Shown: positions 1,447-38,600, counted from the first letter of the stretch. The stretch: DNA of 64,000 bases from Pseudomonadota bacterium (GCA_049322515.1 JBMOQW010000012.1:204023-268022); one strand, 5' to 3'. Program-made: numbers and translations. The notes: generated by a model from the sequence alone, not told the origin.

Positions 1447-1498
1447 CTTGAGCTAGAATGTCGGCTTCTTTTCTCGACTGATTTCAAGGAGTTCGGCA

Positions 1499-2419: not shown

Positions 2420-2430
2420 GGAGCCCGACC

Positions 2431-2619
2431 ATGGCTGAACAACGCATCGTCGAGGTCGGCGCCGCCGATCTGCCCCTCTACTGCCCGCCGCGCGGCCAGG
2501 AAGCCGCGTTCAACCACCCGCGCGTGTTCCTTCCGGTCGAGGCCAAGGGCGAGGTCCGCTGCCCCTATTGCAGCACCGTGTACAAACTGGTCGGTGCAAT
2601 CAAGCACGGCCACCACTGA
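2431..2619 (+). CDS. Small zinc-finger (zf-CHCC-like) protein
   Basis: DLPLYCP...HPRVFL...CPYC pattern; GAGGAG RBS before ATG 2431. Confidence 0.85.
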   Translation: MAEQRIVEVGAADLPLYCPPRGQEAAFNHPRVFLPVEAKGEVRCPYCSTVYKLVGAIKHGHH

Positions 2620-2629
2620 GGAATTCGCC

Positions 2630-3142: not shown

Positions 3143-3202
3143 GTCGGCACTGAGCCTGCATGGCCGCTCCCCCGCCGTTGCCGGGAGTGAGCGTCCCCCG
3201 AC

Positions 3203-4573: not shown

Positions 4574-4639
4574 GAGGGGGCATCCAACGAAGACAGTCTT
4601 GATTGTAGGCAGGCGCCACGAACCGAGGCAAGGCAAAGC

Positions 4640-4653
4640 TTGCGCAAGATCAA
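4640..4653 (-). promoter_or_regulatory. FNR-type box upstream of hemN
   Basis: TTGATCTTGCGCAA on minus strand (consensus TTGAT-N4-ATCAA, one perfect half-site); hemN is a typical FNR target. Confidence 0.6.
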
Positions 4654-4709
4654 TCGTGCGGAGCAAGCCCCCACAGATGTCATGAGTATATCCTTAGTAC
4701 TAAATTTTC

Positions 4710-4737
4710 TAGACAGATCTATTTTTTATGGCATAAT
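4710..4737 (+). promoter_or_regulatory. sigma70 promoter of putative sRNA
   Basis: TAGACA-N16-CATAAT with extended TG, in an AT-rich patch. Confidence 0.55.
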
Positions 4738-4743
4738 GGAATC

Positions 4744-4808
4744 TACCTCCCTGACCGCCGCAACGGCGGTTTTCTACACGGCACTGGTTCACCAGTGCCG
4801 TTTTTTTT
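4744..4808 (+). ncRNA. Putative small regulatory RNA with anti-SD seed
   Basis: Own promoter; 5' ACCTCCCT; hairpin ACCGCCG-caa-CGGCGGT; terminator ACGGCACTGG-ttca-CCAGTGCCGT plus T-run; algC has a separate downstream promoter (TTGCCC-N16-GATAAT). Confidence 0.55.
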
Positions 4809-4858
4809 GCCCATAGCGGCAAAGCCGGGATAATGCGCGGGTTTTCAGGGAGACCTCC

Positions 4859-6235
4859 ATGACCGCCATCCCCGCCGAAATCTTCAAGGCCTATGACATT
4901 CGCGGCATCGTCGGCCGCACGCTCACCCCCGAGATCGTCACCGCCATTGGCCAGGCCCTGGGCAGCGAGGCTCGGGCCCGCCAGCAACGCGAGATCGCCA
5001 TCGGCCGCGACGGCCGCCTGTCCGGGCCGGCGTTGGCCGAAGCCCTGGCGAACGGCATCCGCACCGCCGGGGTCGATGTGATCGATCTCGGTCTGGTGGC
5101 CACGCCGATGACCTACTTCGCCGCCCACCACCTGGGCACCGATTGCGCGGTGATGGTCACCGGCTCGCACAATCCACCCGATTACAACGGCCTCAAGATG
5201 GTCCTGGCCGGGGAAACCTTGTCCGGCGAGACCATCCAGGCCCTGCGCCGGCGCATCGAGACCGGCGATCTGGCGAATGGCGAAGGCGCCTATCGCCAAT
5301 ACGACATCGGCCCCGATTACCAGTCGCGCATCGTCGGCGATATCCACTTGGCACGTCCGCTCAAGCTCGTCGTCGATGCCGGCAATGGTGTCGCCGGCGC
5401 CTACGCACCCGCGCTCTACCGGGCGCTCGGCTGCCAGGTGGACGCCCTGTTCTGCGAGGTCGATGGCCATTTCCCGAATCACCACCCCGACCCCTCCGAA
5501 CCCCACAACCTGGCCGACCTGATCGACCGGGTGAAAAACTCGGATGCGGAAATCGGCCTGGCCTTCGACGGCGACGGCGATCGCCTCGGCGTGGTCGCCA
5601 AGGACGGCCGCATCATCTACCCGGACCGCCAGTTGATGCTGTTCGCCGCCGATGTCCTGAGCCGCCAACCGGGCGCCACCATCATTTACGACGTCAAGTC
5701 GACCCGCAACCTGGATCCCTGGATCCGTACCCACGGCGGCGTACCCATGCTCTGGAAAACCGGCCATTCGCTGGTCAAGGCGCGCATGAAGGAAACCGGC
5801 GCCGCCCTGGCCGGCGAGATGAGCGGCCACGTCTTCTTCAAGGAACGCTGGTACGGCTTCGACGATGGTCTGTACGCCGGGGCCCGCCTGCTCGAATATC
5901 TGTCCAGGCAGGCCGATCTGGATGCCACCTTGCATGACCTGCCAGACAGCGTGAACACACCCGAACTGCACATCAAGATGAAGGAGGGCGAGCCGCACCG
6001 GCTGATCGCCCTCCTGCGGGACACGGCCACTTTCGAGGGTGCCCGCGAGGTGATCACCCTGGACGGCCTGCGCGTCGAATACCCGGATGGCTTCGGCCTG
6101 ATGCGACCGTCCAATACCACACCGGTCATCGTGCTGCGTTTCGAGGCCGACCATGCCGAGGCCCTGGCCCGTATCCAGCATGCGTTCCGGCGCGTCATCC
6201 TGGCCGCGGCGCCTGACGCAGTCCTGCCCTTCTGA
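4859..6235 (+). CDS. algC: Phosphomannomutase/phosphoglucomutase
   Basis: IFKAYDIRG, TGSHNP, FDGDGDR, GEMSGH. Confidence 0.95.
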   Translation: MTAIPAEIFKAYDIRGIVGRTLTPEIVTAIGQALGSEARARQQREIAIGRDGRLSGPALAEALANGIRTAGVDVIDLGLVATPMTYFAAHHLGTDCAVMVTGSHNPPDYNGLKMVLAGETLSGETIQALRRRIETGDLANGEGAYRQYDIGPDYQSRIVGDIHLARPLKLVVDAGNGVAGAYAPALYRALGCQVDALFCEVDGHFPNHHPDPSEPHNLADLIDRVKNSDAEIGLAFDGDGDRLGVVAKDGRIIYPDRQLMLFAADVLSRQPGATIIYDVKSTRNLDPWIRTHGGVPMLWKTGHSLVKARMKETGAALAGEMSGHVFFKERWYGFDDGLYAGARLLEYLSRQADLDATLHDLPDSVNTPELHIKMKEGEPHRLIALLRDTATFEGAREVITLDGLRVEYPDGFGLMRPSNTTPVIVLRFEADHAEALARIQHAFRRVILAAAPDAVLPF

Positions 6236-6238
6236 CAG

Positions 6239-7192
6239 ATGCACTGCTGGCGCCACGGTCCGGACGGCTGGCACGCGGCCGACGCCGACTCCCTGGCGGA
6301 GCCACTGGCGGGGGACACTGCTTTTGTCTGGCTGGAACTGGAAAGCCATGAGCATCGGCTGCTGGAGAAGCTCGGCCGCACGCTCGATCTGCACGAACTG
6401 GCCCTGGAGGACGCCATTTCGGCACGTCAGCGGCCGAAGCTGGAGGAATACCCCAACGGCACCCTGTTCCTGGCCATTCGCACCGCGATGGAATGGAACC
6501 ATGCGATCGAGTTCGGCGAAACCCACGTCTTCATCGGCCCGCGTTATTTGATCGCGGTGCATCATGGCCCCGGGCCCGGACATGGCCAGGCGCTGGAGCA
6601 GCTCAGGCGCGGGCGTTTTGCGCCGTCGCCGGGGGCCGCCCTCTATTATTTGCTCGACCAGATCGTCGACGCCTACCGGCCGGTCTCCGACCATCTCGAG
6701 GACCGCTACGACAGCTACGAAGCCGCCCTGCTCGATACCGACCTGGCTGAGAAAAACCTGCCCCGCCTGTACCAGCTCAAGCGCCAGACCCTGCTGCTCT
6801 CCCAGGCCGTGGAACCGATGTCGGACATCGTGCAGGAACTGATCCGCATGCAACCGCAGATCGTCGAAAAGGGACTTAAAGCCTATTACCGGGATGTCCA
6901 CGACCATCTCACCCGACTCAACCGCGAGCTGTTCCAGATGCGCGAAATGCTCTCCGACGCCATGCACGTCAGCCTGGCCACCTTGTCGCTGCGCCAGAAT
7001 GAATCGGTGCAAAAACTGGCCGGCTGGGGCGCCATCCTGGCCATCCCCACCTTGGTGTTCAGCCTGTACGGCATGAACTTCGCGCACATGCCGGAGCTGA
7101 ACTGGCCCTGGGGTTACCCGATCGTCCTGCTCGGCACCGGTGCCGCCTGCCTGTCCCTGCATCGGCATCTCAAGCAACGCGGCTGGATTTGA
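6239..7192 (+). CDS. corA: CorA-family Mg/Co transporter
   Basis: QRPKLE, two C-terminal TM helices, YGMNF-MPEL. Confidence 0.9.
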
Positions 7193-7241
7193 GGCACGCC
7201 TTCCGGCACCGTATCATTCTCCTTTTTTCACGGACTCCGCC

Positions 7242-7727
7242 ATGGCACCGCTCGTCGGACTCATCATGGGCAGCGTGAGCGACTGGGAAACCATGCGCCA
7301 GGCCGCCGACCTGCTCACCGAACTGGGCATTCCGTTCGAAAAGCGCGTGGTGTCGGCCCACCGCACCCCTGATCTGCTGTTCGACTATGCCGCCAGCGCG
7401 GCCGAGCGCGGTCTCAAGTGCATCATCGCCGGGGCCGGCGGCGCCGCCCACCTGCCCGGCATGGTCGCCGCCAAGACCCACCTGCCGGTGCTCGGCGTAC
7501 CGGTGCAGTCGCGCGCGCTGAAGGGCATCGATTCCCTGTTGTCCATCGTCCAGATGCCGAAGGGCGTGCCGGTCGCCACGTTTGCGATTGGTGAAGCCGG
7601 CGCGGCCAACACCGCCCTGTTCGCCGCCGCCCTGTTGGCCAACGAGTTCCCCGACATCCGCGCCCGTCTGATCGCCTTCCGCCAGAAGCAGACCGACAGC
7701 GTGTTGGCCATGAGCCTGCCCGAATGA
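7242..7727 (+). CDS. purE: N5-CAIR mutase
   Basis: [31 protein letters not shown]. Confidence 0.96.
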
Positions 7728-8872
7728 CCGCCGGTGCCACGCCCCTGCTGCCCGGCGCGACCCTGGGCGTCCTCGGTGGCGGCCAGCTCGGCCGCATGTT
7801 CACCCTGGCCGCCCGGGTCATGGGCTACAAAGTGGTGGTACTCGATCCCGACCCGGACGCGCCGGCCGGCCAGGTCGCCGACATTCACCTCAAAGCTGGT
7901 TACACCGACGCCGCCGCGCTCCTGCACATGGCCAACCTATGCCAGGCGGTGACCACGGAGTTCGAGAATGTCCCCGCGCAAAGCCTGGACATGCTGGCCA
8001 AGCACGTTTTCGTGGCCCCCTCCCCCGCCGCCGTCGCCGTCGCCCAGGATCGCCTGCTGGAAAAGAGCCGGGCTCAGGAATTCGGCTGCGACACGGCGCC
8101 CTTCGCCAACATCGAGGACGAAGGTTTCCTGGTCAATGCCTGGACCCGCATCGACGGCCCGGCGCTGCTCAAGACCCGTCGGCTGGGCTATGACGGCAAG
8201 GGTCAGATCAAGGTCGACAGCCTGGACGACCTGGTTGCCGCCTTCGACCATCTCGGCCGGGTGCCCTGCCTGCTCGAGGGCCGGCTCGCCCTGAAACAGG
8301 AAGTTTCGGTGGTCCTGGCCCGCAATCCCCAGGGCGAGATTGCCTTCTTCCCGGTGGCGGAAAACCGGCATCGCCAGGGCATCCTGGATCTCAGCCTGGT
8401 GCCTGCGCAAGTGCCCGAGGCTATCGCGGAACGAGCCCGCGCCATGGCGGCACAGATCGCTGCCGGACTCGACTATGTCGGCGTCATGGCCGTGGAATTC
8501 TTCATCCTCGACGACGGCCGCATCGTGTTCAACGAAATGGCGCCGCGCCCGCACAACAGTGGCCACTACACCCTGGATGCCTGCGCCACCGACCAGTTCC
8601 AGCAGCAGGTCCGCGCGCTGGCCGGCTTGCCTCTGGGTGACCCCCGGCTGCTCTCGCCGGTGGTCATGGTCAACCTCCTGGGCGACCTTTGGCAGCCCGA
8701 GCCCGCCTGGGACCGGCTGCTCGCCCATCCTGGCGTGCAGCTTCATCTCTATGGCAAGGCTGAAGCCCGGCCCGGCCGCAAGATGGGTCATTACAATTGC
8801 CTGGCAGCCCGCTTCGAGGACGCGCTGGCCCTCGCCACTGTGACGCGGACCGAGCTGGGCATCGGCGCTTGA
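7724..8872 (+). CDS. purK: N5-CAIR synthetase
   Basis: [32 protein letters not shown]; ATGA overlap with purE. Confidence 0.96.
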
Positions 8873-8987
8873 CCCCGGACCGGGCATCCCGCTTGCATTG
8901 ACAAACAGCTGATCTATAAAGTGAAATAGGTATGAATGGACCAATGGCGCCGCCTGAGGTCCCCTGTCCTTTGTCAGGAGTCGCATC

Positions 8988-9350
8988 ATGGATGTCACCA
9001 GCAACCTCTCCACCAACGCCTCCCTGGCCGTGTCTGCCTACGGCAGCCAACAGGCCGGCATGGTCCGCCCACGCGAGCAGCGCAACGACGACCCGGCCGT
9101 GGATCGTGCCCCACAGGAGCCGAGCAGCCGGCGCGTCGACAATGTCAATTTCAGCACCGAGGCATTGCGTTTGAGCGGACAAAGCGATGCCGTGACCAAC
9201 CGCACGCGCGTCAATGCCGCCAATGAAAGCGAGACCGACAACGCCCAGCGTATCCGTCCGGAAGCCCAGCCCCCCGAGACTGAACGTGCCACGGGCGCAA
9301 AATCGGTCGCCCAGGCGATCAACGCTTACAACAGCACCCAGGTGATCTAG
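8988..9350 (+). CDS. Hypothetical low-complexity protein (DxVxFSxEA motif reminiscent of FlgM-like proteins)
   Basis: AGGAG RBS; VDNVNFSTEALRLS and SVAQAINAY motifs. Confidence 0.6.
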   Translation: MDVTSNLSTNASLAVSAYGSQQAGMVRPREQRNDDPAVDRAPQEPSSRRVDNVNFSTEALRLSGQSDAVTNRTRVNAANESETDNAQRIRPEAQPPETERATGAKSVAQAINAYNSTQVI

Positions 9351-9363
9351 GCCAGGGCTTGTC

Positions 9364-9744
9364 ATGGACATGACTGTCAGCGCGCTCAGTTCCGCCTACT
9401 TGCCCGCAGTGCCGGCGCAAGGGGCAGTGCGCGCGCCGACCGACACGAACCTGCGGGCCCTCCCCCAGGACGCATTGGCCAGGGATGGCCGATCCCGGAC
9501 CACGCCTTCCCCTTTGGAGGCCGAACGCGCCCGCGAGGAAGCAGCCCGTCGCCGCGACCCCGTGGCCGAACCAGCGCGCAGTCCGGGCTTCGTGTTCGAA
9601 TTCCAGGACAGCCGCCAGGTCATGAAGGTCCACAATGCCAAGGGGGTCCTGATTTACCAGGTCCCGTCCAAGGGCCAGCTAGCCTTGATCGAAACCGAGG
9701 AAGCCGCCAATCGGCTCGACCCGCGTCTCCGGCTCACCGCCTGA
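9364..9744 (+). CDS. FlaG-like hypothetical protein
   Basis: C-terminal FEFQ..QVMKVHN..GVLIYQVPS resembles the FlaG core. Confidence 0.55.
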   Translation: MDMTVSALSSAYLPAVPAQGAVRAPTDTNLRALPQDALARDGRSRTTPSPLEAERAREEAARRRDPVAEPARSPGFVFEFQDSRQVMKVHNAKGVLIYQVPSKGQLALIETEEAANRLDPRLRLTA

Positions 9745-26254: not shown

Positions 26255-27499
26255 TTAATCCCGCACGCGATCGATCACAAGTTTGACCCCGGTTGCCCCC
26301 ACCTTGACCTTCGCCAACGACCCTTCCAGGTCGCCCGGGGCGCCCTTGACTTCACCTGACTTCGCGATGCGGGCCGTCAGGTTGACTTCCTTGAACCGGG
26401 ACAGCGCATTCTCCGGGGTCATTGCCATGGCATCGCTGAGCTCGAACTCGAGCGGGAACTTGCCCGCCGTGGCCCGAATCGCCGCGACCGGGGCGCCCCC
26501 TTCGCCGGGCCGCGCAAACAGGAACACGACATCCTCGGGCTTGACCTTGGCCTTCAGCGCGGGGGCGACATCGACCACGCCCTTGATGGTCGCACCGGGG
26601 TTGGCAGCGGATTTCCCAGCATCGGCGAGATTGTCCATGCCGCCATTGAGCCCAGCCATGGCCAGGCGGCTGGCTTCCTTTTCCGCCTCGGCGATATCCT
26701 GGGCGTAGGGGGCCTCGGGCGGCAGCAACTTGCCCAGCCGCTTGAAATAGTAGGCGGCCTGGGCGAAGTTCCTTTGCTGGAAGTTGTGGATGCCGGCCAG
26801 TTCCAGGCCCTTGAGATCATCCGGATCCTTTTCGAGGGCCTTGAGGACCAGTTCCATCGGCTTGCCGGACAGGTCGCGCTGCTTGGCAATGGCCAGCACC
26901 TCGGCGTAGCCGGTCATCACCGACGGTTCGTCGGGACGCAGGGCCAGGGCCTTTTCGTAGGCCGCCAGGGCTTCCGGCCAGTGTTCGACCACCGCGTAGG
27001 TCTTGGCCAGGAGGGTCCAGGCTTCAGCATTGTTCGGATCGGCCTTGGCCTTTTCCTCGACCTGCGCAATCAGCTTCATGACATCGTGCCCCCCGGCAGC
27101 AGCGTCGGACTGGGACGCCACGGCATCGATGGCGCCGGGATTGCCGATCGTCAGGTAGAAGCCGATGGCGCAGGCGGGCAGCAGGACGGCCAGGCCATAG
27201 CCCAGGGACCGCCCGCCCCGGCGGACCGCCGGAGCGACTTCCTCGACCTCCAGGGCATCAGCGGCGAGGCGGGATTCGAGCTCGACCTTGGCTTCCTCGT
27301 ACTGGGCAGGGGTGAGCAGGCCATTGTCACGGTCCACGCTCATTTCGCGCAGTTGGTCGCGATACACCGCGATGTTGATGCCCCGGCGCCCGGCCTGGGC
27401 CGATGTGACGCGCGTACGCAGCAGTGGTGGCAGGACAAAGGCCAAGGCCAGCACCACGAGCAGGGCAACAGCGCCCCAGAAAGCAAAGGATGAGTTCAA
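26255..27499 (-). CDS. ccmI: Cytochrome c biogenesis protein CcmI (TPR)
   Basis: NIAVYRDQL, TPR repeats, C-terminal FPLEFELSDAMAM..ARIAKSG. Confidence 0.9.
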   Translation of the reverse strand: MNSSFAFWGAVALLVVLALAFVLPPLLRTRVTSAQAGRRGINIAVYRDQLREMSVDRDNGLLTPAQYEEAKVELESRLAADALEVEEVAPAVRRGGRSLGYGLAVLLPACAIGFYLTIGNPGAIDAVASQSDAAAGGHDVMKLIAQVEEKAKADPNNAEAWTLLAKTYAVVEHWPEALAAYEKALALRPDEPSVMTGYAEVLAIAKQRDLSGKPMELVLKALEKDPDDLKGLELAGIHNFQQRNFAQAAYYFKRLGKLLPPEAPYAQDIAEAEKEASRLAMAGLNGGMDNLADAGKSAANPGATIKGVVDVAPALKAKVKPEDVVFLFARPGEGGAPVAAIRATAGKFPLEFELSDAMAMTPENALSRFKEVNLTARIAKSGEVKGAPGDLEGSLAKVKVGATGVKLVIDRVRD

Positions 27500-27558
27500 A
27501 GGATGCTCCTAGAAACAGGCATGCGTAAGGAGGGGGGCTTCAACCGCACTGGGGGCTA

Positions 27559-28032
27559 TCAGCGATCGTCGTCTTCCAGCAATCGGGCCGCCTGCTTGAT
27601 CGCGGCCTCGCTGGCCTGGTCGGTCGGTTTGAGGGCGCGGCGTCGGCGCAACGTGAAATACCAGGCGATGCCGCCAATGACGAGAAACAGCGCCGGGCCA
27701 AGCCAGAGCAACAGGGTGTAGCTGCGGAACGGGGGCTTGTAGAGCACGAAATCGCCGTAGCGGTCGGTCAGGTAGGTGATGACTTCCTGGTCATTCTTGC
27801 CATGCTTCATCTGCTCCCGGATTTCCCGGCGCAGGTCCTCGGCCAGCTCGGCATGGGAACCGGCCAGGGATTCGTTCTGGCAGACCAGGCAACGCAAGTC
27901 CTCGGCCAACAGGTTCATGCGCGCCTCGATGGCCGGGTCCTCGCCGACCGGAACCGCTTCGCCGGCGTGGACCGGGAGGGACAGCACGGTGAACAGGGCA
28001 AACAACAGCGAGGTCAGGAAGGGGCGGCTCAT
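27559..28032 (-). CDS. ccmH: Cytochrome c biogenesis protein CcmH
   Basis: LRCLVCQNESL, RYGDFVLYKPP. Confidence 0.93.
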   Translation of the reverse strand: MSRPFLTSLLFALFTVLSLPVHAGEAVPVGEDPAIEARMNLLAEDLRCLVCQNESLAGSHAELAEDLRREIREQMKHGKNDQEVITYLTDRYGDFVLYKPPFRSYTLLLWLGPALFLVIGGIAWYFTLRRRRALKPTDQASEAAIKQAARLLEDDDR

Positions 28033-28547
28033 TGGTTCAGATCCTTGAGCAGCGGGTCGAATTTCTTCTGCCAGCTGTCGGCGTCGATCGGGCCGACGTG
28101 TTTCATCCGGATGATGCCCTGCTTGTCGATGACGAAGGTCTCGGGCGTGCCGGTCACGCCATAGTCGATGCCGACCCGGCCATCCAGATCGTCCACCACC
28201 ACCCGGTAAGGGCTGCCCGCCTTGGCCAGCAGGGCCTCGGCCTCGCGGTCCTTGTCCTTCCAGTTGAGGCCGTAGACTGGCACGCCGGCCTGCGAGAGCT
28301 GCATCAACACGCCATGCTCCTGACGGCAGGAAACGCACCAGGGCGCCCAGATGTTGAGCAGCCAGACCTGGCCCTTGTTCTGCGCCGGGGAAAAGGTGAC
28401 GCCGGGCTGGCCAATGACCGGCAAGGTGAAGGCCGGGGCCGGCTTGCCGATGAACGGCGAAGGCACTTCGCGCGGGTTCAGTTGCAGACCGACCAGCAGA
28501 AAACCGGCCAGGACGACAAAGACGATCAAAGGCAACCAGCGGTTCAT
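28029..28547 (-). CDS. ccmG: Thiol:disulfide interchange protein CcmG/DsbE
   Basis: PSPFIGKPAP, WAPWCVSCRQEH, GVTGTPETF. Confidence 0.93.
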   Translation of the reverse strand: MNRWLPLIVFVVLAGFLLVGLQLNPREVPSPFIGKPAPAFTLPVIGQPGVTFSPAQNKGQVWLLNIWAPWCVSCRQEHGVLMQLSQAGVPVYGLNWKDKDREAEALLAKAGSPYRVVVDDLDGRVGIDYGVTGTPETFVIDKQGIIRMKHVGPIDADSWQKKFDPLLKDLNQ

Positions 28548-30523
28548 GCCTGGGCTCCCTGGACAACGCCGCCGGCCGGCACCTCGGATTTCTTCAAGGC
28601 GATCCGATACCGGCGGTCGCTGGCTGCGAACACCCCGCCCATGACCATGAACAGGCCGCCGATCCACAGCCAATTGATGAACGGCTTATGGAACACGCGG
28701 ACAGTCCAGGCGCCGCCTTCCAGTTCCTCACCCATGGCCGCATACACGTCGCGGGTGAAACTGTAGTGGATGGCGGCTTCGGTCATCGGCATGCCGGAGG
28801 CGTTATAGATGCGCTTTTCCGGATGGAGCGTGGTGACCGGCTTGCCGTCCTTGGTCACTTCCAGGGTCCCGCGTGCGGCCTGGTAGTTGGGGCCGGGACG
28901 CATTTCAGCGCCCCGGAAGGTGAAGACATAGCCGGCCAGTTCGGCGGTGTCGCCGATGTTCATCTTGACGTTGCGTTCGCTTTCATAGGCCGAGACCAGG
29001 GCGATCCCGGCCACCACCCAGGCCAAACCGAAGTGCGCCAGCTGCATGCCCCAGAAGCCGCGCGGCAAGCCGCCCAGCTTGGCCATCAGGGGGCCCTGGG
29101 CATGCTTCAGGCGCTCGGCGAAGCCGATCAGCACGGTGAACACGATCCAGAGCGCCAGCGCCAGGCCAAACGCGGCCATGGCATTGAAGCCGTCGAAGGT
29201 GAACGGCAGCAGCAAGCCACTGACGATGGCCACCGCCATGGCCACGCGCAAGCGCTTGACCAGCTCGGGCAGGCTGGCCTGCTTCCAGCGCGCCAGGGGA
29301 CCGACACCGACCAGGAACAGGATCGGGGTCATCAGCGGCACGAACACGGCGTTGAAGTAAGGCGGGCCGACCGAGATCTTGCCCATGCCGAGCGCGTCCA
29401 TGAACAAGGGATACATGGTGCCCAGAAGCACCGCGCCCATGGCCGCGGCCAACACCACATTGTTGGCGAGCAGGAGGGATTCGCGCGACAGGGCGGAGAA
29501 ACTGCCCCCGCTCGCCATCTTCGGCGCACGCAGGGCGAACAAGACGAAGGATCCACCGATCACCACGCCGAGGAACGCCAGGATGAACACGCCCCGGGTC
29601 GGGTCGGTGGCGAAGGCATGCACCGACGACAGCACGCCCGAGCGAACCAGAAAGGTGCCGAGCAGGCTCATCGAGAAGGCGGTGATGGCGAGCAGCACGG
29701 TCCAGTTCTTGAAAGCGCCGCGCTTCTCGGTCACTGCCAGGGAGTGGATCAGGGCGGTGCCGACCAGCCAGGGCATGAACGAGGCATTCTCGGTCGGATC
29801 CCAGAACCACCAGCCGCCCCAGCCGAGCTCGTTATAGGCCCACCAGCTGCCCAGGCCGATGCCCAAGGTCAGGAACAGCCAGGCCACCGTGGTCCAGGGC
29901 CGTGACCAGCGTGCCCAGGCGGCGTCCAGCTTGCCGGACAGGAGCGCGGCAATGGCGAAGGCGAAGGCCACCGAGAAACCAACATAGCCCATGTACAGCA
30001 TCGGCGGATGCAGCACCATGCCGGGGTCCTGCAACAGGGGGTTCATGTCGCGGCCGTCCATGGGCACGGGCAGCAGGCGATCAAACGGGTTCGAAGTGAG
30101 GAGCAGGAAGAGCAGGAAACCGACGCTGACCAGGCCCATGACGCCAATCACGCGCGCTGCCATGTCCTCGGGCAGATGCCGGCTCCAGACCGTGACGGCG
30201 GTGGTCCAGAAGGTCAGGATCAGGGTCCAGAGCAACAACGAACCTTCGTGCGAGCCCCAGGTCGCGGTGAAACGGTAGATCGGCGGCAGTTGCGAGAACG
30301 AGTTGCGGGCCACGTTCTCGACCGAGAAATCATTGGTCAGGAAGGCATAGGCGAGGCAGCCGTAGGCAAACAGGACGAACACGAACTGACCTTGCGCGGC
30401 CGGTCGAGCCACCCCCATCAGGGTGGCGTTGCCGCGCTGCGCGCCAACCAGGGGCAGGATGCCCTGGACCAGGGCCAGCATCAGGGCGAGGATCAAGGCG
30501 AAATGGCCAAGCTCAGGGATCAT
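28544..30523 (-). CDS. ccmF: Heme lyase CcmF
   Basis: MIPELGHF, WGSHEGS, HPPMLY, WGGWWFWDPTENAS, SVHAF. Confidence 0.96.
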   Translation of the reverse strand: MIPELGHFALILALMLALVQGILPLVGAQRGNATLMGVARPAAQGQFVFVLFAYGCLAYAFLTNDFSVENVARNSFSQLPPIYRFTATWGSHEGSLLLWTLILTFWTTAVTVWSRHLPEDMAARVIGVMGLVSVGFLLFLLLTSNPFDRLLPVPMDGRDMNPLLQDPGMVLHPPMLYMGYVGFSVAFAFAIAALLSGKLDAAWARWSRPWTTVAWLFLTLGIGLGSWWAYNELGWGGWWFWDPTENASFMPWLVGTALIHSLAVTEKRGAFKNWTVLLAITAFSMSLLGTFLVRSGVLSSVHAFATDPTRGVFILAFLGVVIGGSFVLFALRAPKMASGGSFSALSRESLLLANNVVLAAAMGAVLLGTMYPLFMDALGMGKISVGPPYFNAVFVPLMTPILFLVGVGPLARWKQASLPELVKRLRVAMAVAIVSGLLLPFTFDGFNAMAAFGLALALWIVFTVLIGFAERLKHAQGPLMAKLGGLPRGFWGMQLAHFGLAWVVAGIALVSAYESERNVKMNIGDTAELAGYVFTFRGAEMRPGPNYQAARGTLEVTKDGKPVTTLHPEKRIYNASGMPMTEAAIHYSFTRDVYAAMGEELEGGAWTVRVFHKPFINWLWIGGLFMVMGGVFAASDRRYRIALKKSEVPAGGVVQGAQA

Positions 30524-30555
30524 TGACTTTCCTTAGGGATGACGGCGCGGCGCGG

Positions 30556-31014
30556 CTACTGGACCAGCGTGCTCTGGGCTTTCTGGGCCTGCTCGAGCGC
30601 GTGCGCGGCTTCGGGGGGCATGTAGTTCTCGTCGTGCTTGGCCAGGACCTGGGTGGCGCTGAACTGGCCGCTCGACGCCAACTTGCCTTCGACCACCACG
30701 CCCTTGCCTTCCTTGAACAGGTCAGGCAGGGGACCGAACTCGGAAACACTGTAGCGGACCGGCACGGTCTGGGCGGTATCGGTGACCACGAAATCGACCC
30801 ACATGCCATCCTCCGAACGCTTCAGGCTGCCCTCCTCGACCAAGCCACCGATCCGGAAGGCCCGCTCGGCCGGCGCCTTGCCCTGCGCGACATCGGTCGG
30901 AGAGAAGAAGAACACCAGGTTCTCCTGGAAAGCGTTCAGGACCAGGGCGGCGGCGATGCCCAGACCCACCACCGACAAACCGATGGCGAGCAGTTTCTTG
31001 TTGCGAGTTTTCAT
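30556..31014 (-). CDS. ccmE: Heme chaperone CcmE
   Basis: [16 protein letters not shown]. Confidence 0.96.
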
Positions 31015-31184
31015 TGCGATTCCCAGTTCTTCAAACGCCGCAGTCGGCGCACAGTCTGGCTGTGACCGCGTTTCAGGAAAATGATTTCAATCAATATCGC
31101 GATCACCGTCACGGCATACGATCCCCAGACGTAGAGGCCATAGCCGCCCATCGCCCAGAAGGCTTCCCAGCTTTCCCACTGCAT
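31011..31184 (-). CDS. ccmD: Heme exporter protein D
   Basis: [12 protein letters not shown]; between ccmC and ccmE. Confidence 0.92.
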
Positions 31185-31921
31185 CACTTGCCCTCCAGGA
31201 TGGCGGCGACCCACTCGGTCTGGCGTTCGCGTTCCAGGATGATGCCGCGCACCCGATACAACGCCATGGCGATGGTGTAGAACCAGGCCGCGAAAGCCAT
31301 CACCAGCATGCCGATCAGCATGATCGAGGCCATGCTCGGTGCCTTGGTCAGGCTGATGCTGGCGCCCTGGTGCAGGGTGTTCCACCATTTCACGGAAAAA
31401 TAGATGATCGGCACGTTGACGGCCCCGACCAGGATCAGCAAGGCGCCGGCCTTGTCACCCCGGCGCGGATCATCGATGGCCGACCACAGGGCCATGATGC
31501 CGACATAGAGGAAGAACAGGATCAGCGCCGAAGTCAGGCGGGCATCCCACACCCACCAGGCCCCCCACATCGGCTTGCCCCACAGCGCGCCGGTCCACAG
31601 TGACAAGAAGGCGAACACCGCGCCGGTCGGAGCCAGCGCGCGCGCCATCATGAACGACAGCCGGGTATTCCAGGCCAGGCCGATGGCGGCCCAGAAGGCC
31701 ATCACCAGATAGATGAACATCGACATCCAGGCCGCCGGCACGTGGATGAAGATGACCCGGTAGGCCTCGCCCTGCTGGAAATCGGTCGGCGCGACGAAGA
31801 AGGCGAGGTAGAGGCCGACCGCACAGAGCAGGGCCGAACTCCAGGCGAACCAGGGAATCAGCCGGCCAGCGAGCCCGTAGAAGGTCATCGGCGCGGCGTA
31901 CTTGAACAGAGCAATGGACAT
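31184..31921 (-). CDS. ccmC: Heme exporter protein C
   Basis: HVPAAW, WGKPMWGAWWVWDARLTS, WWNTLHQ. Confidence 0.96.
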   Translation of the reverse strand: MSIALFKYAAPMTFYGLAGRLIPWFAWSSALLCAVGLYLAFFVAPTDFQQGEAYRVIFIHVPAAWMSMFIYLVMAFWAAIGLAWNTRLSFMMARALAPTGAVFAFLSLWTGALWGKPMWGAWWVWDARLTSALILFFLYVGIMALWSAIDDPRRGDKAGALLILVGAVNVPIIYFSVKWWNTLHQGASISLTKAPSMASIMLIGMLVMAFAAWFYTIAMALYRVRGIILERERQTEWVAAILEGK

Positions 31922-31923
31922 GG

Positions 31924-32592
31924 TCACTCGATGGATACACGCAGGGCCGCCGAAGCCACCCAGGGCGACACCAGCAAGGTCATCACCATGAAGGCTGCGA
32001 GCAGCGACAGGTTGGCTTCGGCACCAAGGCCGGCCAGCGCGGCATCGACCGCGCCGGCGCCGAAGATCAGGGCCGGAACATACAAGGGCAGGATCAGCAA
32101 CGTCAACAATACCCCTCCGCCGCGCAGGCCCAAGGTCAACGCCGCGCCGACGCTGCCGAGCAAGGACAGCACCGGCGTCCCGATCAACAAGGACAGCACG
32201 AGCACGCCGATCGCCTCGGCCGGCAAGGCGAACTGCACGCCGAGCACCGGCGCGATCAGCAGCAGCGGGATGCCATAGATGAGCCAATGGGCCAGCGCCT
32301 TGCCGAGCGCCAGCAGGACCGGCGGATGCGGCGACAGCAAAATCTGTTCCAGGCTGCCGTCCCGGTGGTCGTCGGCAAACAGCCGCGACAGCGACAACAG
32401 CGAGGCCAGCAGGGCGGCCACCCAGACCACGCCGGGCGCCACCTTGGCCAGGATCACCGGATCCGGCCCGATCCCGAGCGGGAACATGCTCACCACCATG
32501 ACGAAGAAAAACTGCGAGGTGAGCCAGTCGCCCTTGCGCCGGGCGGCCAGTTTCAAGTCACGGCGGATCACCGTGATCAGGAAGCGCAGCAC
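31924..32592 (-). CDS. ccmB: Heme exporter protein B
   Basis: RRDLKLAARR, DDHRDGSLEQ, LPLYVPALIFG; GTG start. Confidence 0.93.
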   Translation of the reverse strand: MLRFLITVIRRDLKLAARRKGDWLTSQFFFVMVVSMFPLGIGPDPVILAKVAPGVVWVAALLASLLSLSRLFADDHRDGSLEQILLSPHPPVLLALGKALAHWLIYGIPLLLIAPVLGVQFALPAEAIGVLVLSLLIGTPVLSLLGSVGAALTLGLRGGGVLLTLLILPLYVPALIFGAGAVDAALAGLGAEANLSLLAAFMVMTLLVSPWVASAALRVSIE

Positions 32593-33254
32593 TCGGCCTC
32601 CGCCTCGATCGGGGTCAGCACCGGTCCGACCTGCAAGGGCACCACGTCGACGCCCTCCAGGGCCAAAGGCTGGTGGGTGGTCATCACCACCATGCCGCCG
32701 GTGCGGACATGGTCGCGCAGCAAGCCTTCGACCATGGCCACGCCATGGATGTCGAGCCCGGTGAGCGGCTCGTCGAGGATCCACAGACGGGCACCGGCAT
32801 TGACCAGACCAGCCAGCGCCACCCGGCGCCGCTGGCCGAACGACAACACCCGGCAGGGCAGGTCCAGACAACGGGCCAGGCCGATCTCGACCAGGGCCTG
32901 CTCGGCTTCGGCCTCGGCCATGGGTGCGCGCGCCAGTTCCGCGGCGAGGCGCAGGTTCTCGACCGGGGTCAGTTCATCCTTGATGCCGTTCAAATGACCC
33001 AGATAGGCCATTTCCCGGTGGTATGCGTCGCGGTTGTTCTGAATCGCCTCGCCGCGCCAGCGAATCTCGCCGGCCAGGGGTTCGGCGAGCCCGGTCAGCA
33101 AGCGCAGCAAGCTGGTCTTGCCGCGCCCGTTGCCGCCTTGCACCAGCAACAGCTGACCCGCCGAGAGGACGAAATTCATGGCCTCGAACAGGGTGCGCTC
33201 GCCGCGGGCGCAGGCGAGGTCGTGCACGGTAAGCAAGGGGGTGGAATCGGTCAT
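32577..33254 (-). CDS. ccmA: Heme ABC exporter ATP-binding protein
   Basis: GGNGRGKT, LSFGQRRR, WILDEP, TTHQ. Confidence 0.93.
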   Translation of the reverse strand: MTDSTPLLTVHDLACARGERTLFEAMNFVLSAGQLLLVQGGNGRGKTSLLRLLTGLAEPLAGEIRWRGEAIQNNRDAYHREMAYLGHLNGIKDELTPVENLRLAAELARAPMAEAEAEQALVEIGLARCLDLPCRVLSFGQRRRVALAGLVNAGARLWILDEPLTGLDIHGVAMVEGLLRDHVRTGGMVVMTTHQPLALEGVDVVPLQVGPVLTPIEAEAECCAS

Positions 33255-33319
33255 GGGAAGCGGGGCTGACAAGCCTTTGGAGGATACCGACAAACACTGT
33301 CCAGGCAAAGCCGGACCAT

Positions 33320-33346
33320 AAAAAGGGGCCGGCTCGCGCCGGCCCC
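33320..33346 (-). terminator. Intrinsic terminator after the octaheme nitrite reductase
   Basis: GGGGCCGGC-loop-GCCGGCCCC followed by TTTTT on the minus strand. Confidence 0.75.
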
Positions 33347-33366
33347 AAAGACTGCTGGTGAAAAGA

Positions 33367-35079
33367 TTACTTGGCCGCGGTCTTCATCTTGGCCAGCTCT
33401 TCCTTCAGCAGCTTGATGCCGGCCTGGGAGGCATCGATGGAACGGGTCAGCGACTCGCGGGCATCATCCGGGTTGTGGAAGCCATCCGAGTTCTCGGCGG
33501 TCCACCATTCCCAATACAGGTTGGCGTCGTATTGCAGGTCGTAGGCCTTGTTCATCACCTCGGCGGACACACCGGCTTCCTTGGCCTTCATGATCACGTC
33601 GATATACTGGGCGATCCAGAATTCGGCCTTGGCCATCTTGCCGCGGATATACCCCTGGATGGCCTCCATGTGGTAGCGCGCGTCATCCTCGGTCCATTCC
33701 TTGTGGCAGTTCAGGCAAGCGGCTTTGAGGTTGTAGCGCGGCGAGATCTGCTGGTGATTGGTGGTCACCTTGCCGTTCGCGTGCTTCTTCTTAGTCATGT
33801 GGCAGTCCTTGCACTCGACGCCCGCTTTCTCGTGCTTGGAACCCCAGTAGGTTTCCATTTCCGGGTGCTGGATCTTGGGCAACAGGGCGCCGGTGCTGGC
33901 GTGCTTGAAGTCCTTGAACTTGTTCTGCCCGACCATCTTGTCCTTGTAGCCGAACACGTTGGTCCAGGTGAACAGGTTGGTGCGCGGGTCGGCCATGGTC
34001 ACATACTTCGGATTGGCCGGGTCGGAACAATCGAAGCCGGGGCCGCAGTTGTATTCCACGTGGCACTGGGCGCACATCAGGTTGGAATCGGATTTCGAGA
34101 GCAGGCCGATGGCACGAAAATCCTTGCCGTCACGTTGGAAGGTGACCTTGGTCATCTTGCTCTTTTCGCTCTTGGCCTTGTCCTGCGGGTAGGTGCCTTC
34201 CTTGCGGTCGACCACCGCCTGGATCAGGGCGTCACGGACCACGCGCGGCGCGGCGGAGTGTGGGTCATGACACATGTAGCAGTTGAGCGGATGGTTCACA
34301 CCCCGCGCAAACTCGACCGGCTTGGAAGTGCGATCCCACTTGGCCTTCGGGTCCTTGTCGCCCATGTATTTCCAGTCCAGGATGTGGTCCTGCGTCTTGC
34401 AGTTCATGCAGACCGGGTTCACCGCCGTCACCGTCTGGCGCATGAAAATCTTTTGATCGGAGGTCGAGGGTTCCTTGTCGACGATCACGTTCCAGGCGCC
34501 GTTGGCAGCCAGTTCAGCCTTGTTGACATAGGTCCAGTCCTTGAACTGCATGCGACCGCCGAAGGCACGATCCACCACCCATTGATCGACCAGCATGAAG
34601 GCGTGCGAGCGGGGCTCGTTGTGCTCCTTGGTGAAACCGTAGCCTTCCATCAGCTTGTCGAACAAGGGCGAACGGCTCTTGGTGGTGGCCTTCTCCACCC
34701 GTGCCTTCGATTCCAGATTGGTCTGCACGAAGCTGTTGTACTGCTCGACGTGACAAGTGGCGCAGGCGCGATGGTCCTTGATGGTATTCGGCCGGGTGCC
34801 CATCTTGCTGCCCTTGGCGGTCTTCTGATGTTCGGCGGCATCATTGTGGCAATGCGCACAGTTCACCGTGGCGTGGCGACCACCGGTATGAAACTCCTCG
34901 ATGTTCTCGTGGCAGGAATAACACTTCTTGGCGTCCACCGGCTTGATCGGATCGGCCTTGGCCGGCACCGGGGGCGGCATTTGTGGCCTGGGAATGTCCA
35001 CGACCGCCTGGGCACCGAAGCCGATCAGCGAGAACGCCGCAGCCAGTGCCAAGCGACCTAATTGGGTCGTCATGCTCAT
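33367..35079 (-). CDS. Octaheme cytochrome c nitrite reductase (TvNiR/ONR-type, ammonia-forming)
   Basis: Sec signal; 7 CxxCH plus active-site CMNCK; [30 protein letters not shown]. Confidence 0.92.
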
Positions 35080-35197
35080 GATGTTTCCTCCTTGAATACC
35101 AACATTGGCGCACGGGACAGCGCGCCTCCGGACCGCTCAAACGCTGTTTGCCATGGTGTTCATCGATCCCCCTTTCCTGCCAGATCCCAATCAAGTG

Positions 35198-36514
35198 TCA
35201 GGCGAACGAATCCGCCATGATGTTCTTCAGCCAGCCGGTCGCGTATTCCGACTCCAGCTTGCGTTGCAGCTTGAGCTGGGCCTCGTCCGGCAGGTTCACC
35301 GGCGAGATGCCACCAGCCTCCTGGATGTAGACCAGCTTGCCGTCCTTCACCCGGTAGACGTGCACCACCGAGAAGCCCCAATCCTTGTCGGTGATCGAAT
35401 AGCAGGTATTGACGAAGAACGGCTCGGGCGCGGGCAGGCCGTTCAGCTTGGCGATGATGGCGCCGGCGGCGACCTTGGCCTGGGTCGAAGCCGAGTGCGC
35501 GGATTTCGGCGCGCCATAGACCGGCAGGTCGCCGTGCACGCAGGCATCGCCGACCACCCAGATGTCCTTGTGGACTTTGGATTCCATGGTCAGCATGTCG
35601 ACCGAGCACCAGCCCTTTTCATTGGTCAGACCGGCATTCTTGGCCACCATGCCGGCATGATGCGGCGGGATGATATTGAGCACGTCGGCCTTGTAGTCGC
35701 CGAAATCGGTGTAGGCGGTGTTGCGCTTGGCATCCATCTTGATCACCTTGCCCCCGGCGGCGCCGGCCACCCATTCGATCATGCCGGGGTATTGCATCTT
35801 CCAGGCCTGCTCGAACAAGCCCTTCTTGGAGAAGGAGTCGTTGGCATCCAGGATCAGCACCTTGGACTTGCCCTTGCCGTGATCACGCAGATAGTTGGCC
35901 ACCTGGGCGGCGCGTTCGTAAGGGCCGGGCGGGCAACGGAACGGGCCGGGCGGCACCGTGATGACGAAAGTGCCGCCATCCTGCATGGACTCCAGCTGTT
36001 TCTTCAATGCCAGGGTCTGGGGACCCGCCTTCCAGGCGTGGGGATGGGTGGTGTTGGCCAGTTCCTCGCTGTAGCCGGCGATGGCTGCATAATTGAAATC
36101 GATGCCAGGCGACACCACCAGGGCATCGTACTTGAGCGTCTTGCCACTCTTCAGGCTGACCGACTTCTTGGCCGGGTCGATGCCGGTGGCATCATCGAAC
36201 ACCAGATGGATGCCCCGCTTGGCGAGACCGTCATAGCCGATCTGCAAGTCTTCCAGCTTGCCATGGCCGGACAGCACCTCGTTCGACAGCGGGCAGGAAG
36301 TGTAAATCTTCTGGCGCTCGACCAGGGTGACGTCCAGACCCGGGTCCATCAGCTTCAGGTATTTGGCGGCGGTGGCGCCGCCGAAGCCGCCACCGATGAC
36401 GACGATCTTGGCCTTGACGCCGGCGTGGGCGGCCTGGGGCACGGCCAGGCAGGCCGACGCCGGCGCGGCGGCGATGGCGGCCTTGATGAATGCGCGACGA
36501 TTGAACGAGCTCAT
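35198..36514 (-). CDS. fccB: Flavocytochrome c sulfide dehydrogenase flavoprotein subunit (FccB/SoxF)
   Basis: Tat signal NRRAFIK, GGGFGGATAA, CPLSN, CPPGPYERA, PKSA, NTCYS. Confidence 0.92.
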   Translation of the reverse strand: MSSFNRRAFIKAAIAAAPASACLAVPQAAHAGVKAKIVVIGGGFGGATAAKYLKLMDPGLDVTLVERQKIYTSCPLSNEVLSGHGKLEDLQIGYDGLAKRGIHLVFDDATGIDPAKKSVSLKSGKTLKYDALVVSPGIDFNYAAIAGYSEELANTTHPHAWKAGPQTLALKKQLESMQDGGTFVITVPPGPFRCPPGPYERAAQVANYLRDHGKGKSKVLILDANDSFSKKGLFEQAWKMQYPGMIEWVAGAAGGKVIKMDAKRNTAYTDFGDYKADVLNIIPPHHAGMVAKNAGLTNEKGWCSVDMLTMESKVHKDIWVVGDACVHGDLPVYGAPKSAHSASTQAKVAAGAIIAKLNGLPAPEPFFVNTCYSITDKDWGFSVVHVYRVKDGKLVYIQEAGGISPVNLPDEAQLKLQRKLESEYATGWLKNIMADSFA

Positions 36515-36527
36515 GAGGGTCTCCTGA

Positions 36528-37180
36528 TTATTTCGGCTGGGCGGCGTAGTACTGGGCGGCATGGGCGACATCGGCCTCGTCCAGCTTCTTGGCGTTGTTG
36601 CGCATTTTCTTGTGCGGCATCAGCACCGATTCGGTGCGGTATTTGAGCAACTCCAGCTCCAGGTACTTGGCCCATTGGCCGTTCAACCGCGGGGTATCCT
36701 CATCGTCCGGCTCGCCGCCGGTGACGCCGTGGCAGGTCTCGCAGCGCTCGGTGGCATCCTTGCCCTTGGCCAGGACATCAGCCCCGGCCTTCTGCACCAC
36801 CGGCACCCACGGCTTCTTGCTGAAATAGGCGGCCAGGGCAGCGAGTTCCTCGTCGCTATAGCCCTTGAAATGACGGCCCATGGTGGCGGAATAGCGTTCA
36901 CCCGACTTCCATTGCAGCATCACGTGCTGTCGCTATAGCCCTTGAAATGACGGCCCATGGTGGCGGAATAGCGTTCACCCGACTTCCATTGCAGCATCAC
37001 GTGCTTGAGATAGGTTTCCGACAGACCACCGATGCTGGGCATGGTCGGGCCGACGGACACGCCATTCATGCCATGGCAGTTGTTGCAAGTGTGGGCCAGC
37101 GCCTCGATGTTGCCGGCGACCGACACGCCCGAGACTGCCAGGCCGGCAGCCAGGATGGCCACCTCTAGACGATTCCTCAT
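36528..37180 (-). CDS. fccA: Diheme cytochrome c subunit of flavocytochrome c (FccA), apparently frameshifted by a 77-bp duplication
   Basis: Removing one 77-bp copy restores a 191-aa ORF with signal peptide, CNNCH and CETCH. Confidence 0.85.
36852..37005. repeat. Exact 77-bp tandem duplication (36852-36928 / 36929-37005)
   Basis: Two identical copies of GTCGCTATAGCC...CATCACGTGCT. Confidence 0.95.
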
Positions 37181-37281
37181 AATCCCCTCCAGGACACGTG
37201 ACACGAAGGGACTCGCCCGCCTGGACAAGCCCATGTATATGTACTGGAGCCGATGGTATCGAGGCACGTCGTCAACAAACC

Positions 37282-37295
37282 TTGATAGCCATCAA
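37282..37295 (-). promoter_or_regulatory. Consensus FNR/DNR box heading fccA-fccB-onr
   Basis: TTGAT-AGCC-ATCAA; -10-like TACCAT at 37258-37253 gives approximately class II spacing. Confidence 0.85.
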
Positions 37296-37427
37296 ATTTT
37301 CATCGAATAGCCAGGTTTGTTTTGGGGGATTGGCGCATTTCCAGGTAAAGCCAACCTGGCCGCGATCCGCCGGGAACCCCAGGTGACGCGATGCGCGGCG
37401 TTTGAGGAGCCGCGCCGAGGGGCCGAA

Positions 37428-38600
37428 TCAGCCCTGGGCGCGGGCGCCCAGTTGGGCGATCTGCTCGGGATTCAGGGTTTCCAGCCACTTGCGCACGCGG
37501 CTGGCATCACCGATGCGCGACAGCTTGCCCCAGGAGTCGAGCAGGACCACGATCACCGGCCGGTTAGCGATGCGCGCCTGCATGACCAGACAATGCCCGG
37601 CTTCGTTGATGTAGCCGGTCTTGGACACCCCGATGTCCCAGTCGGGGTTGCGGGTCAGGGCGTTGGTGTTGTTGAAGGCGACATGGCGCATCACCTCGCG
37701 GGACACCTTGCGCACCTTGCCGTGTTCCTTGATCTTCACGGTCTGACGGCCCGGCACGCTGATGCCGAACTGGCCGGTACTCGAGATGCGTCGGATCTCC
37801 GGATAGTCGTAGGCGGCATCGACCAGCTTGGCCAGGTCGGCGGCGGTGGAGCGATTGTTGCTGTCCAGGCCGGTGCCGTCGACGAACCAGGTGTTGCTCA
37901 TGCCCAGGACGGCCGCCTTGCGGTTCATGGCCTGGATGAACGCCTCACGACCGCCCGGGTAGGCGCGCGACAGGGCGGCAGCGGCACGATTTTCGGAGGC
38001 GATCAGGGCCAGGTTGAGCAACTCCTCGCGGCTCAGGGTGGTGCCCAGGGCCAGACGGGAGCCGGTGTACTTGAGGCGGTCGACGTCTTCCATGCCGATG
38101 GTGATGTCCTCGGACATGGCGAGGCCTGCGTCGAGCACCACGATGGCAGTCATCAACTTGGTGATCGAGGCGATCGGCGTGGCGACATCGGGGTTCTTGG
38201 CATAGAGGGCATGACCGGTGCGCTGGTCGAGCACCATCACGGCGGCGGAACGCAATTCCAGGTCATCGCTGTTGGCGAGACCATAGGAGACTTGCAGGGG
38301 CGCCGTCGCCAGGCTGTGCGGACGGGGAGCCTCCTGGGCTTCGCTGACGATCCTGCGAGCCTTGATCCTGGCTTTCTTCTTGGTCGCCTTGATCTTCTTC
38401 TTGGCGCTTGCCTTGACTTTCTTCTTGGATGCCTTGGCCTTGACCTTTTTCTTGCTCGCCTGGGCGTTCTTGCTGACCTTGGCTGTCGCGCTCTTGGTGC
38501 TGGACGGGGCGCGTTCGGCGGCTTCCGCCAGGGGCGCACCCAGGGCCAGCAGGAACGACATCAGATAGGCGATCAGTTTTTTCATTCGCGTCAAAGTCAT
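37428..38600 (-). CDS. pbpG: D-alanyl-D-alanine endopeptidase (PBP7-like) with Lys/Ala-rich N-terminal linker
   Basis: ASITKLM, SEN, SKTGYINEAGHC; alternative start at 38585. Confidence 0.88.
   Translation of the reverse strand: MTLTRMKKLIAYLMSFLLALGAPLAEAAERAPSSTKSATAKVSKNAQASKKKVKAKASKKKVKASAKKKIKATKKKARIKARRIVSEAQEAPRPHSLATAPLQVSYGLANSDDLELRSAAVMVLDQRTGHALYAKNPDVATPIASITKLMTAIVVLDAGLAMSEDITIGMEDVDRLKYTGSRLALGTTLSREELLNLALIASENRAAAALSRAYPGGREAFIQAMNRKAAVLGMSNTWFVDGTGLDSNNRSTAADLAKLVDAAYDYPEIRRISSTGQFGISVPGRQTVKIKEHGKVRKVSREVMRHVAFNNTNALTRNPDWDIGVSKTGYINEAGHCLVMQARIANRPVIVVLLDSWGKLSRIGDASRVRKWLETLNPEQIAQLGARAQG

Follow-up and report, generated by a model that had tools for sequence, protein, structure and literature searches.

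The 64,000-nt window analysed here, meaning the whole stretch of Pseudomonadota bacterium DNA under GCA_049322515.1 JBMOQW010000012.1:204023-268022, whose internal coordinates are used throughout, carries, in a sulfur-oxidising bacterium, a compact unit composed of a Crp/Fnr-family box, the genes fccA and fccB of a flavocytochrome c sulfide dehydrogenase (FCSD), a gene for an octaheme nitrite reductase (ONR) and a terminator, with every gene on the minus strand. The box (37282–37295) reads TTGATGGCTATCAA on the minus strand and lies about 100 nt 5' of the fccA start codon. Given as TTGATAGCCATCAA, it is the sole perfect TTGAT-N4-ATCAA match in the window, where shuffling predicts 0.02 matches by chance, in agreement with an earlier note on this DNA that had placed such a box at the head of the unit. 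A putative −10 hexamer, TACCAT, is read from the sequence at 37253–37258 (minus strand), 23 nt 3' of the box; this spacing would centre the box at about −41.5 from the predicted transcription start, corresponding to a class II FNR-type geometry. About 70 nt beyond TACCAT on the coding strand, a GGAGGGG Shine-Dalgarno sequence precedes the fccA ATG at 37180. At the other end of the unit, an intrinsic terminator-like hairpin of nine G-C pairs followed by TTTTT (33325–33346, minus strand) lies directly 3' of the ONR stop codon. In the fccB–ONR interval, the site scan of the minus strand shows neither a sigma-70-like promoter nor a terminator-like site, and the all-GC hairpin with its T-run lies only behind the reductase, as the earlier note had also concluded.

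The last gene of the unit encodes ONR (33367–35079, minus strand), a 570-aa octaheme cytochrome c nitrite reductase of TvNiR type that carries a Sec signal peptide. Its heme sites comprise three CxxCH motifs at residues 53, 74 and 106, a CMNCK motif at residue 224, and four further CxxCH motifs at residues 267, 336, 423 and 455. The Tyr-x-Cys motif is present as CHVEYNC within residues 336–345, the crosslink itself not being visible from sequence. Additionally, the VDRAFGGR and QHPE-histidine segments align with their TvNiR counterparts, which carry the active-site Arg and His. ONR matches the TvNiR structures 2ot4 and 2zo5 and related entries with an E value of about 7e-222 over residues 43–562, and 8rv0 with 1.6e-133, while pentaheme NrfA is matched at 1e-14 to 1e-26 in the C-terminal part only. 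Both the octaheme CxxCK assignment and the VEYNC crosslink motif named in the earlier note are thereby borne out, and ONR is a predicted nitrite-to-ammonium reductase. In reviews and surveys, enzymes of this type count as ammonifying nitrite reductases whose physiological role alongside NrfA is left unsettled, and redox partners are described for NrfA only (PMC12285233, PMC8840924, PMC10716430, PMC5433712); our literature search found no published physiological donor for TvNiR.

The middle gene, fccB (35198–36514, minus strand), encodes the 438-aa FCSD flavoprotein subunit with domains PF21706, PF09242 and PF07992. Its N-terminus carries the Tat motif MSSFNRRAFIKAAIAAAP (NRRAFIK), which predicts export by the Tat route and, together with the three FCSD flavoprotein domains, fits the Tat flavoprotein of the earlier note. 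FccB matches PDB entries 5n1t, 1fcd and 3vrd at E values near 1e-117, and the alignment retains the equivalents of the covalent-FAD residue Cys42 and of the redox-active pair Cys161/Cys337 of 1FCD. The first gene, fccA, is interrupted in this assembly by a perfect 77-nt tandem duplication (36852–37005) whose two copies occupy 36852–36928 and 36929–37005 and together introduce a +2 frameshift. The 5' part of fccA (36920–37180, minus strand) encodes the signal peptide and heme site 1 (CNNCH) and runs into an early TGA that arises from the duplication, and the 3' part (36528–36851, minus strand; PF00034, PF13442) encodes the heme 2 domain, which contains CETCH and lies in another frame than the 5' part. 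Because the duplication shifts the frame, heme 1 and heme 2 fall into separate open reading frames (ORFs), 36920–37180 and 36528–36923 respectively, and with the gene thus split no intact diheme subunit lies directly upstream of fccB in the window. The co-oriented diheme cytochrome reported earlier is therefore correct in strand and in both heme sites, but it is not encoded by one ORF, the frameshift having been overlooked. In silico deletion of one copy yields a 192-aa diheme FccA, with which the intact FccA proteins of relatives align over their full length. The gene is intact and free of the duplication in all 47 aligned relatives, and the intact FccA of locus L001 matches the FCSD heme subunits 3vrd_A (E 1e-25) and 1fcd_C (E 1e-22).

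The order of these genes is widely conserved. Among 80 ONR loci, taken with one genome per species, fccA, fccB and ONR are adjacent and co-oriented in 48, and in eight more the contig stops within fccB. The 48 syntenic loci span Thiobacillus, Thiobacillaceae, Hydrogenophilales, Sulfuricella, Chromatiaceae and Thiotrichales, Gammaproteobacteria included, so that the lack of conserved adjacency which the earlier note had named as a ground for giving up its proposal clearly does not obtain. Upstream of fccA, a box with at most one mismatch is found at a distance of about 95–225 nt in 43 of the 48, and no comparable box occurs in the fccB–ONR spacer across the same loci. Distant ONRs without fccAB are found in Rhodoferax, Hydrogenophaga, Nitrospirota and some Thioalkalivibrio; two such loci lie beside other multiheme cytochromes, and several continue into a separate CcmF/NrfE-like gene 3' of ONR (L061, L067, L068, L071 and L078). 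A survey of 150 species genomes of the window's family places ONR in 59, with a patchy distribution by genus. FccB lies 90–230 nt upstream of ONR on the same contig in about 45 of these 59, most of the others being interrupted by contig ends (in G080, inside fccB). Only one of the ONR-bearing genomes that can be assessed, the split G076, departs from the order fccA–fccB–ONR.

The surroundings of the unit indicate that it behaves as a cassette. Its upstream flank comprises genes for a fumarase, NfeD, an SPFH protein and pbpG, and immediately 3' of it lies a ccmABCDEF-H-I cluster (26255–33308, minus strand) holding the sole CcmF found in the genome. With pbpG and the ccm genes as its neighbours, and with neither a quinol dehydrogenase gene nor NrfBCD within it, the unit matches the earlier description of a module devoid of nrfH, nrfBCD or any other quinol dehydrogenase. 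In most betaproteobacterial loci ccmA follows ONR; the position of the only CcmF found in the genome, in the cluster directly after ONR, together with the CcmF/NrfE-like genes mentioned above, is a hint of a connection to the maturation of the CxxCK heme. In four congeners without ONR, pbpG is joined directly to ccmA, which indicates that the 3.9-kb cassette is gained or lost whole. In a further congener (G043), the pbpG–ccmA slot carries an identical TTGATAGCCATCAA box followed by fccA–fccB, an HAO-family octaheme cytochrome with eight CxxCH motifs, whose closest structure is IhOCC 4qo5 (E 4e-45), and a TPR protein; this locus is L113 (G043:C18:24000-34000), positions 3170-7283. In G051, likewise, the HAO type stands immediately 3' of fccB. 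Within the family survey the HAO type turns up in 13 of the 150 genomes, none of which has ONR as well, a pattern that is suggestive and not statistical because the genomes are related. ONR and the HAO-type reductase thus take an equivalent place behind one and the same fccAB. Locus L012 (G076, same genus; positions 400-9700) shows a split arrangement in which fccAB lies upstream of fumA, 5 kb from ONR, and ONR follows pbpG with an FNR-like box and CATACCAT directly before it. Since the separated ONR has this box and CATACCAT directly upstream, the fccA promoter would serve ONR in the standard cassette.

The window copy of FccB is one of five paralogues encoded by this genome, for which 2.98 Mb is available at 85% completeness. 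In a tree of the ONR-linked copies and the genome's own four further paralogues, the ONR-linked copies form one clade with SH-aLRT support of 91. An FccB subfamily dedicated to ONR was considered and rejected, because equally close FccB copies sit away from ONR. Paralogous fccAB pairs precede other periplasmic redox proteins. The order fccA–fccB–napA is found in four examined loci of relatives, the NapA identity resting on NCBIfam NF010055 (1321 bits, cut-off 904), and suggests a link from sulfide to the periplasmic nitrate reductase. The loci named with an fccAB heading napA are L096, L097, L098, L099 and L102; in L096, the one locus with downstream annotation, the large Mo-enzyme ORF is followed by genes for an FeS protein, a small diheme cytochrome, a NarJ-like chaperone and a polyferredoxin. 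In L100 (G112:C7; 1209-8300), the genes behind a perfect TTGATCAACATCAA box are fccAB, then one for a decaheme cytochrome of the OmcA/MtrC family (TIGR03507, 475 bits) and one for a second cytochrome with ten hemes. Two further FccB paralogues of the window's own genome adjoin Otr-family octaheme cytochromes (PF11783), at L105 (C18:10000-21000) and L106 (C19:40000-49500); one of these clusters also includes cytochrome b561 and DUF6858, and genes for a DUF302 protein and a monoheme Ig-like protein lie in the other. One examined fccAB paralogue locus stands alone. In L101 (G023:C3; 2600-6200), an fccAB paralogue shows a frame change near FccB residue 420, and its downstream partner may be displaced, the unannotated ORFs directly downstream being transposase-like as a guess from N-terminal sequence. 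The recurrent picture, as read from these predicted genes, is of fccAB heading the genes of periplasmic terminal reductases.

The genome inventory bears on the regulator, on the electron donor and on the fate of nitrite. Five Crp/Fnr-family proteins are present (C27:58299, C8:6154, C27:163753, C3:85900 and C17:51391), four of which carry the E--SR recognition motif, and an N-terminal Cys cluster of the FNR kind is absent from all five found in this 85%-complete genome. One Crp/Fnr regulator adjoins the genome's napA (C27:160051-162786). Because no FNR-like Cys cluster is found among the five, the signal read at the box could be nitric oxide or nitrite, as for Dnr/Nnr-type regulators, and not oxygen; a Dnr/Nnr-type reader and an oxygen-sensing FNR are equally possible on present sequence grounds. 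ONR is the only PF02335 (cytochrome c552-family) gene found in this genome, which yields no match to the NrfH/NapC family (PF03264) and a single good NrfD-family match on another contig. A nirS cluster is present, as are many other c-type cytochromes.

The spacer between fccB and ONR carries features of its own. In the window, a strong Shine-Dalgarno sequence, AAAGGGGGA, precedes an eight-codon mini-ORF encoding MNTMANSV (35137–35175, minus strand), and a short GC hairpin without a T-tract (35107–35126, minus strand) lies between this mini-ORF and the Shine-Dalgarno sequence of ONR. An AAGGAGG-N4-ATG element with a mini-ORF, mostly of 10 codons, is kept in relatives with longer spacers (for example L014:5322-5463), and in many of them the peptide reads M-x-D-A-R-x-x-T-D-V, as opposed to MNTMANSV in the window. 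At the equivalent place relatives have a longer hairpin, with six consensus pairs predicted, two of them showing compensatory changes; a scan of 33200-37450 with Rfam returns nothing meaningful (best E values 0.36 and 0.85). Because its length is better conserved than its sequence, the spacer suggests a translational or mRNA-stability device and may tune either property of ONR expression. In metatranscriptome X9, mixed-organism fragments mostly 90–99% alike cover ONR more than fccAB, and one low-depth RNA contig joins 34965 to 35198 across the fccB–ONR junction, a bridge too weak to be used.

Together, the strict gene order, the shared and conserved promoter, the gain and loss as a unit and the analogous octaheme replacement in one slot point to a functional link between FccAB and ONR, and this comparative genomic evidence gives good support to sulfide oxidation and ONR being functionally coupled. 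In the proposed mechanism, fccA–fccB–onr would form a periplasmic cassette expressed, when oxygen is absent or N-oxides are present, from a single class-II-like promoter of Crp/Fnr type. Tat-exported FccB would oxidise sulfide to zero-valent sulfur, diheme FccA would accept the electrons from FccB, and these would reach ONR either by direct FccA–ONR contact or via a small soluble cytochrome, bypassing the quinone pool and any NrfH-type quinol dehydrogenase. ONR would then spend six electrons on turning nitrite into ammonium, the reduction of hydroxylamine also being possible. Because both half-reactions would be periplasmic, the role of the system would lie in sulfide and nitrite detoxification, electron disposal or nitrogen retention, and not in proton-motive energy conservation. 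What is inferred here is co-transcription, together with the route of the electrons and the role in the cell. That sulfide-derived electrons from FccAB arrive at ONR without passing through the quinone pool is, in our judgement, an evenly balanced proposition. Direct contact between FccA and ONR is more doubtful; complex prediction for the L001 pair (alignments A2 and A3) gives a score of 0.22, the mark being 0.32, and speaks neither for nor against it. A broader generalisation, offered tentatively and rather unlikely to hold in full, is that FccAB constitutes a plug-in electron-input module, each operon being a sulfide:acceptor oxidoreductase independent of quinones and of bc1. In Thiobacillaceae and some Gammaproteobacteria, its acceptors would be ONR, the octaheme reductase of HAO type, NapA and MtrC-type cytochromes. 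Our full-text literature search found no description of an fccAB–ONR or fccAB–napA operon.

Several observations weigh against a dedicated sulfide-to-nitrite route. FCSD hemes have potentials of about 0 mV, higher than those at which turnover of NrfA-type enzymes takes place, and direct transfer could therefore be slow. FccB copies 79–83% identical to that of the window lie apart from ONR, also in genomes in which no ONR was found (G035 and G038, both 99% complete). The conserved mini-ORF and hairpin, joined by a GCTGAC motif in many relatives, fill the fccB–ONR spacer, where an internal promoter or a processing site is possible. ONR is expressible without fccAB in cis, since the split locus of G076 keeps an ONR box and −10 element. 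NrfH absence is not proven, because the genome is 85% complete; nitrite has another sink, because NirS is present; and fccA is frameshifted in this assembly.

The distribution of the FccAB subfamily, which also stands alone, before NapA or MtrC-type cytochromes, or in ONR-less genomes, is what would be expected if FccAB and ONR were co-regulated neighbours and not partners, each exchanging electrons with a soluble pool of c-type cytochromes or HiPIP. The operon would then ensure joint induction by anoxia or N-oxides only, and ONR could draw on any reductant of the pool, for example thiosulfate via Sox, or the bc1 complex. The separated parts in L012, each keeping an FNR-type box, fit this account, as do the many other c-type cytochromes and the four further FccB paralogues of the genome. 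It leaves the strictly conserved order and the gain and loss of the cassette whole at one chromosomal slot without an obvious reason, however, and in that slot ONR is replaced only by another type of octaheme N-oxide reductase; nor does it predict that fccAB paralogues repeatedly head operons of periplasmic terminal reductases. We regard the pool account, the main rival of the proposed route, as possible but rather unlikely. The nature of the slot replacement also bears on the sulfide-recycling alternative raised in the earlier note, according to which ONR acts on sulfite or another sulfur oxyanion and forms a periplasmic sulfur-redox loop with FccAB. TvNiR does turn sulfite into sulfide in vitro (PMC8840924), and the Otr-family cytochromes adjoining two of the FccB paralogues are linked to tetrathionate chemistry. 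Yet the enzyme that replaces ONR belongs to the HAO family, which is tied to N-oxide chemistry, and the active-site set of ONR itself (Lys-ligated heme, Tyr-x-Cys, Arg and His) is that of a nitrite-reducing enzyme. The upstream box, too, is of the type controlling nrf operons (PMC12285233), and a loop from sulfite through sulfide to sulfur, fed by sulfide electrons, would have no net driving purpose. A sulfur-redox loop is accordingly judged highly improbable.

The duplication raises a different question, namely whether the module is decaying or switched off in this strain, a reading to which we give a little less than an even chance. If the duplication is real, FccA would stop short behind heme 1, FccB would be deprived of its cytochrome and ONR of the donor proposed for it, and the strain may have a crippled module; because perfect tandem repeats can also be lost again, the state could be reversible. 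In the likely source run, X1, unitigs end 30 nt into copy 1 (36881) and resume 30 nt short of where copy 2 ends (36976), which is the pattern of a true tandem repeat when read against a k=31 graph, although strain variants abutting the repeat could yield equal breaks. One X1 record fits both copies, and depth in the repeat bin is 64.6 as compared with about 43 in the flanks; run X2 has no coverage of the repeat. The 2.98-Mb genome holds no other perfect 77-nt tandem duplication, and a systematic assembly artefact was rejected on this ground, a single local artefact being still possible. Contig ends in the assembly overlap by 125–127 nt, which suggests a de Bruijn assembler with a final k of 127. 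The value k=77 belongs to the usual SPAdes k ladder, and the exact repeat length is suspicious because it equals a value of that ladder. The repeat borders show no microhomology, the relatives all retain an intact fccA, and scans of public metagenome contigs found neither the duplication junction nor the unduplicated allele. We put roughly even odds on the duplication being genuine as against having arisen in assembly.

The coupling of FccAB to ONR, if true, would identify the long-missing physiological donor of the octaheme nitrite reductases and would provide classical denitrifying sulfur oxidisers with a direct sulfide-driven route from nitrite to ammonium. It would also give a mechanism by which sulfide favours retaining ammonium over losing nitrogen in sulfidic, nitrate-fed, Thiobacillus-dominated habitats such as aquifers, wastewater and sediments. 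ONR is structurally well characterised, and the conserved fccAB–ONR operon supplies a concrete hypothesis for its donor that can be tested in vitro. The position of fccAB at the head of several reductase operons suggests, more generally, a modular and quinone-independent wiring of sulfide oxidation to acceptors.

Comparison with known systems places these features in context. Sulfide-driven ammonification in Sulfurospirillum deleyianum runs via the pentaheme NrfA, whereas the present unit pairs the reductase gene with genes for a dedicated, soluble sulfide dehydrogenase. [quoted passage not shown] The NrfHA and NrfABCD systems share with the present unit a CxxCK-heme nitrite reductase under a Crp/Fnr-type box, as reported for nrf operons (PMC12285233). 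They differ in their donors: no NrfH/NapC homologue was found in this genome and the unit is devoid of NrfBCD, and because the donor genes encode a sulfide dehydrogenase, the route would be quinone-independent, unlike Nrf. The FCSDs of Allochromatium vinosum (1FCD), Thermochromatium tepidum (3VRD) and Thioalkalivibrio paradoxus (5N1T) resemble the window FccB in sequence, in the three key Cys residues and in Tat export, and the window FccA belongs to the same fold family as their diheme subunit; in contrast to these systems, the window fccAB stands in an operon with a terminal reductase, is represented by one of five FccB paralogues and has a frameshifted fccA. The G043 operon has the slot, the box and fccAB in common with the window cassette, but its octaheme cytochrome belongs to a different family, IhOCC-like HAO without CxxCK, and is accompanied by a TPR helper. 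A Thioalkalivibrio metagenome-assembled genome (L061) has fccAB beside ONR in a divergent arrangement, with a CcmF/NrfE-like gene after ONR. The closest counterpart of the enzyme itself is TvNiR of Thioalkalivibrio nitratireducens (2OT4), which the window ONR resembles in the order of its heme sites, in CHVEYNC and in the QHPE histidine, and from which it is set apart by its host, a neutrophilic betaproteobacterium, and by its position as the third gene behind fccAB.

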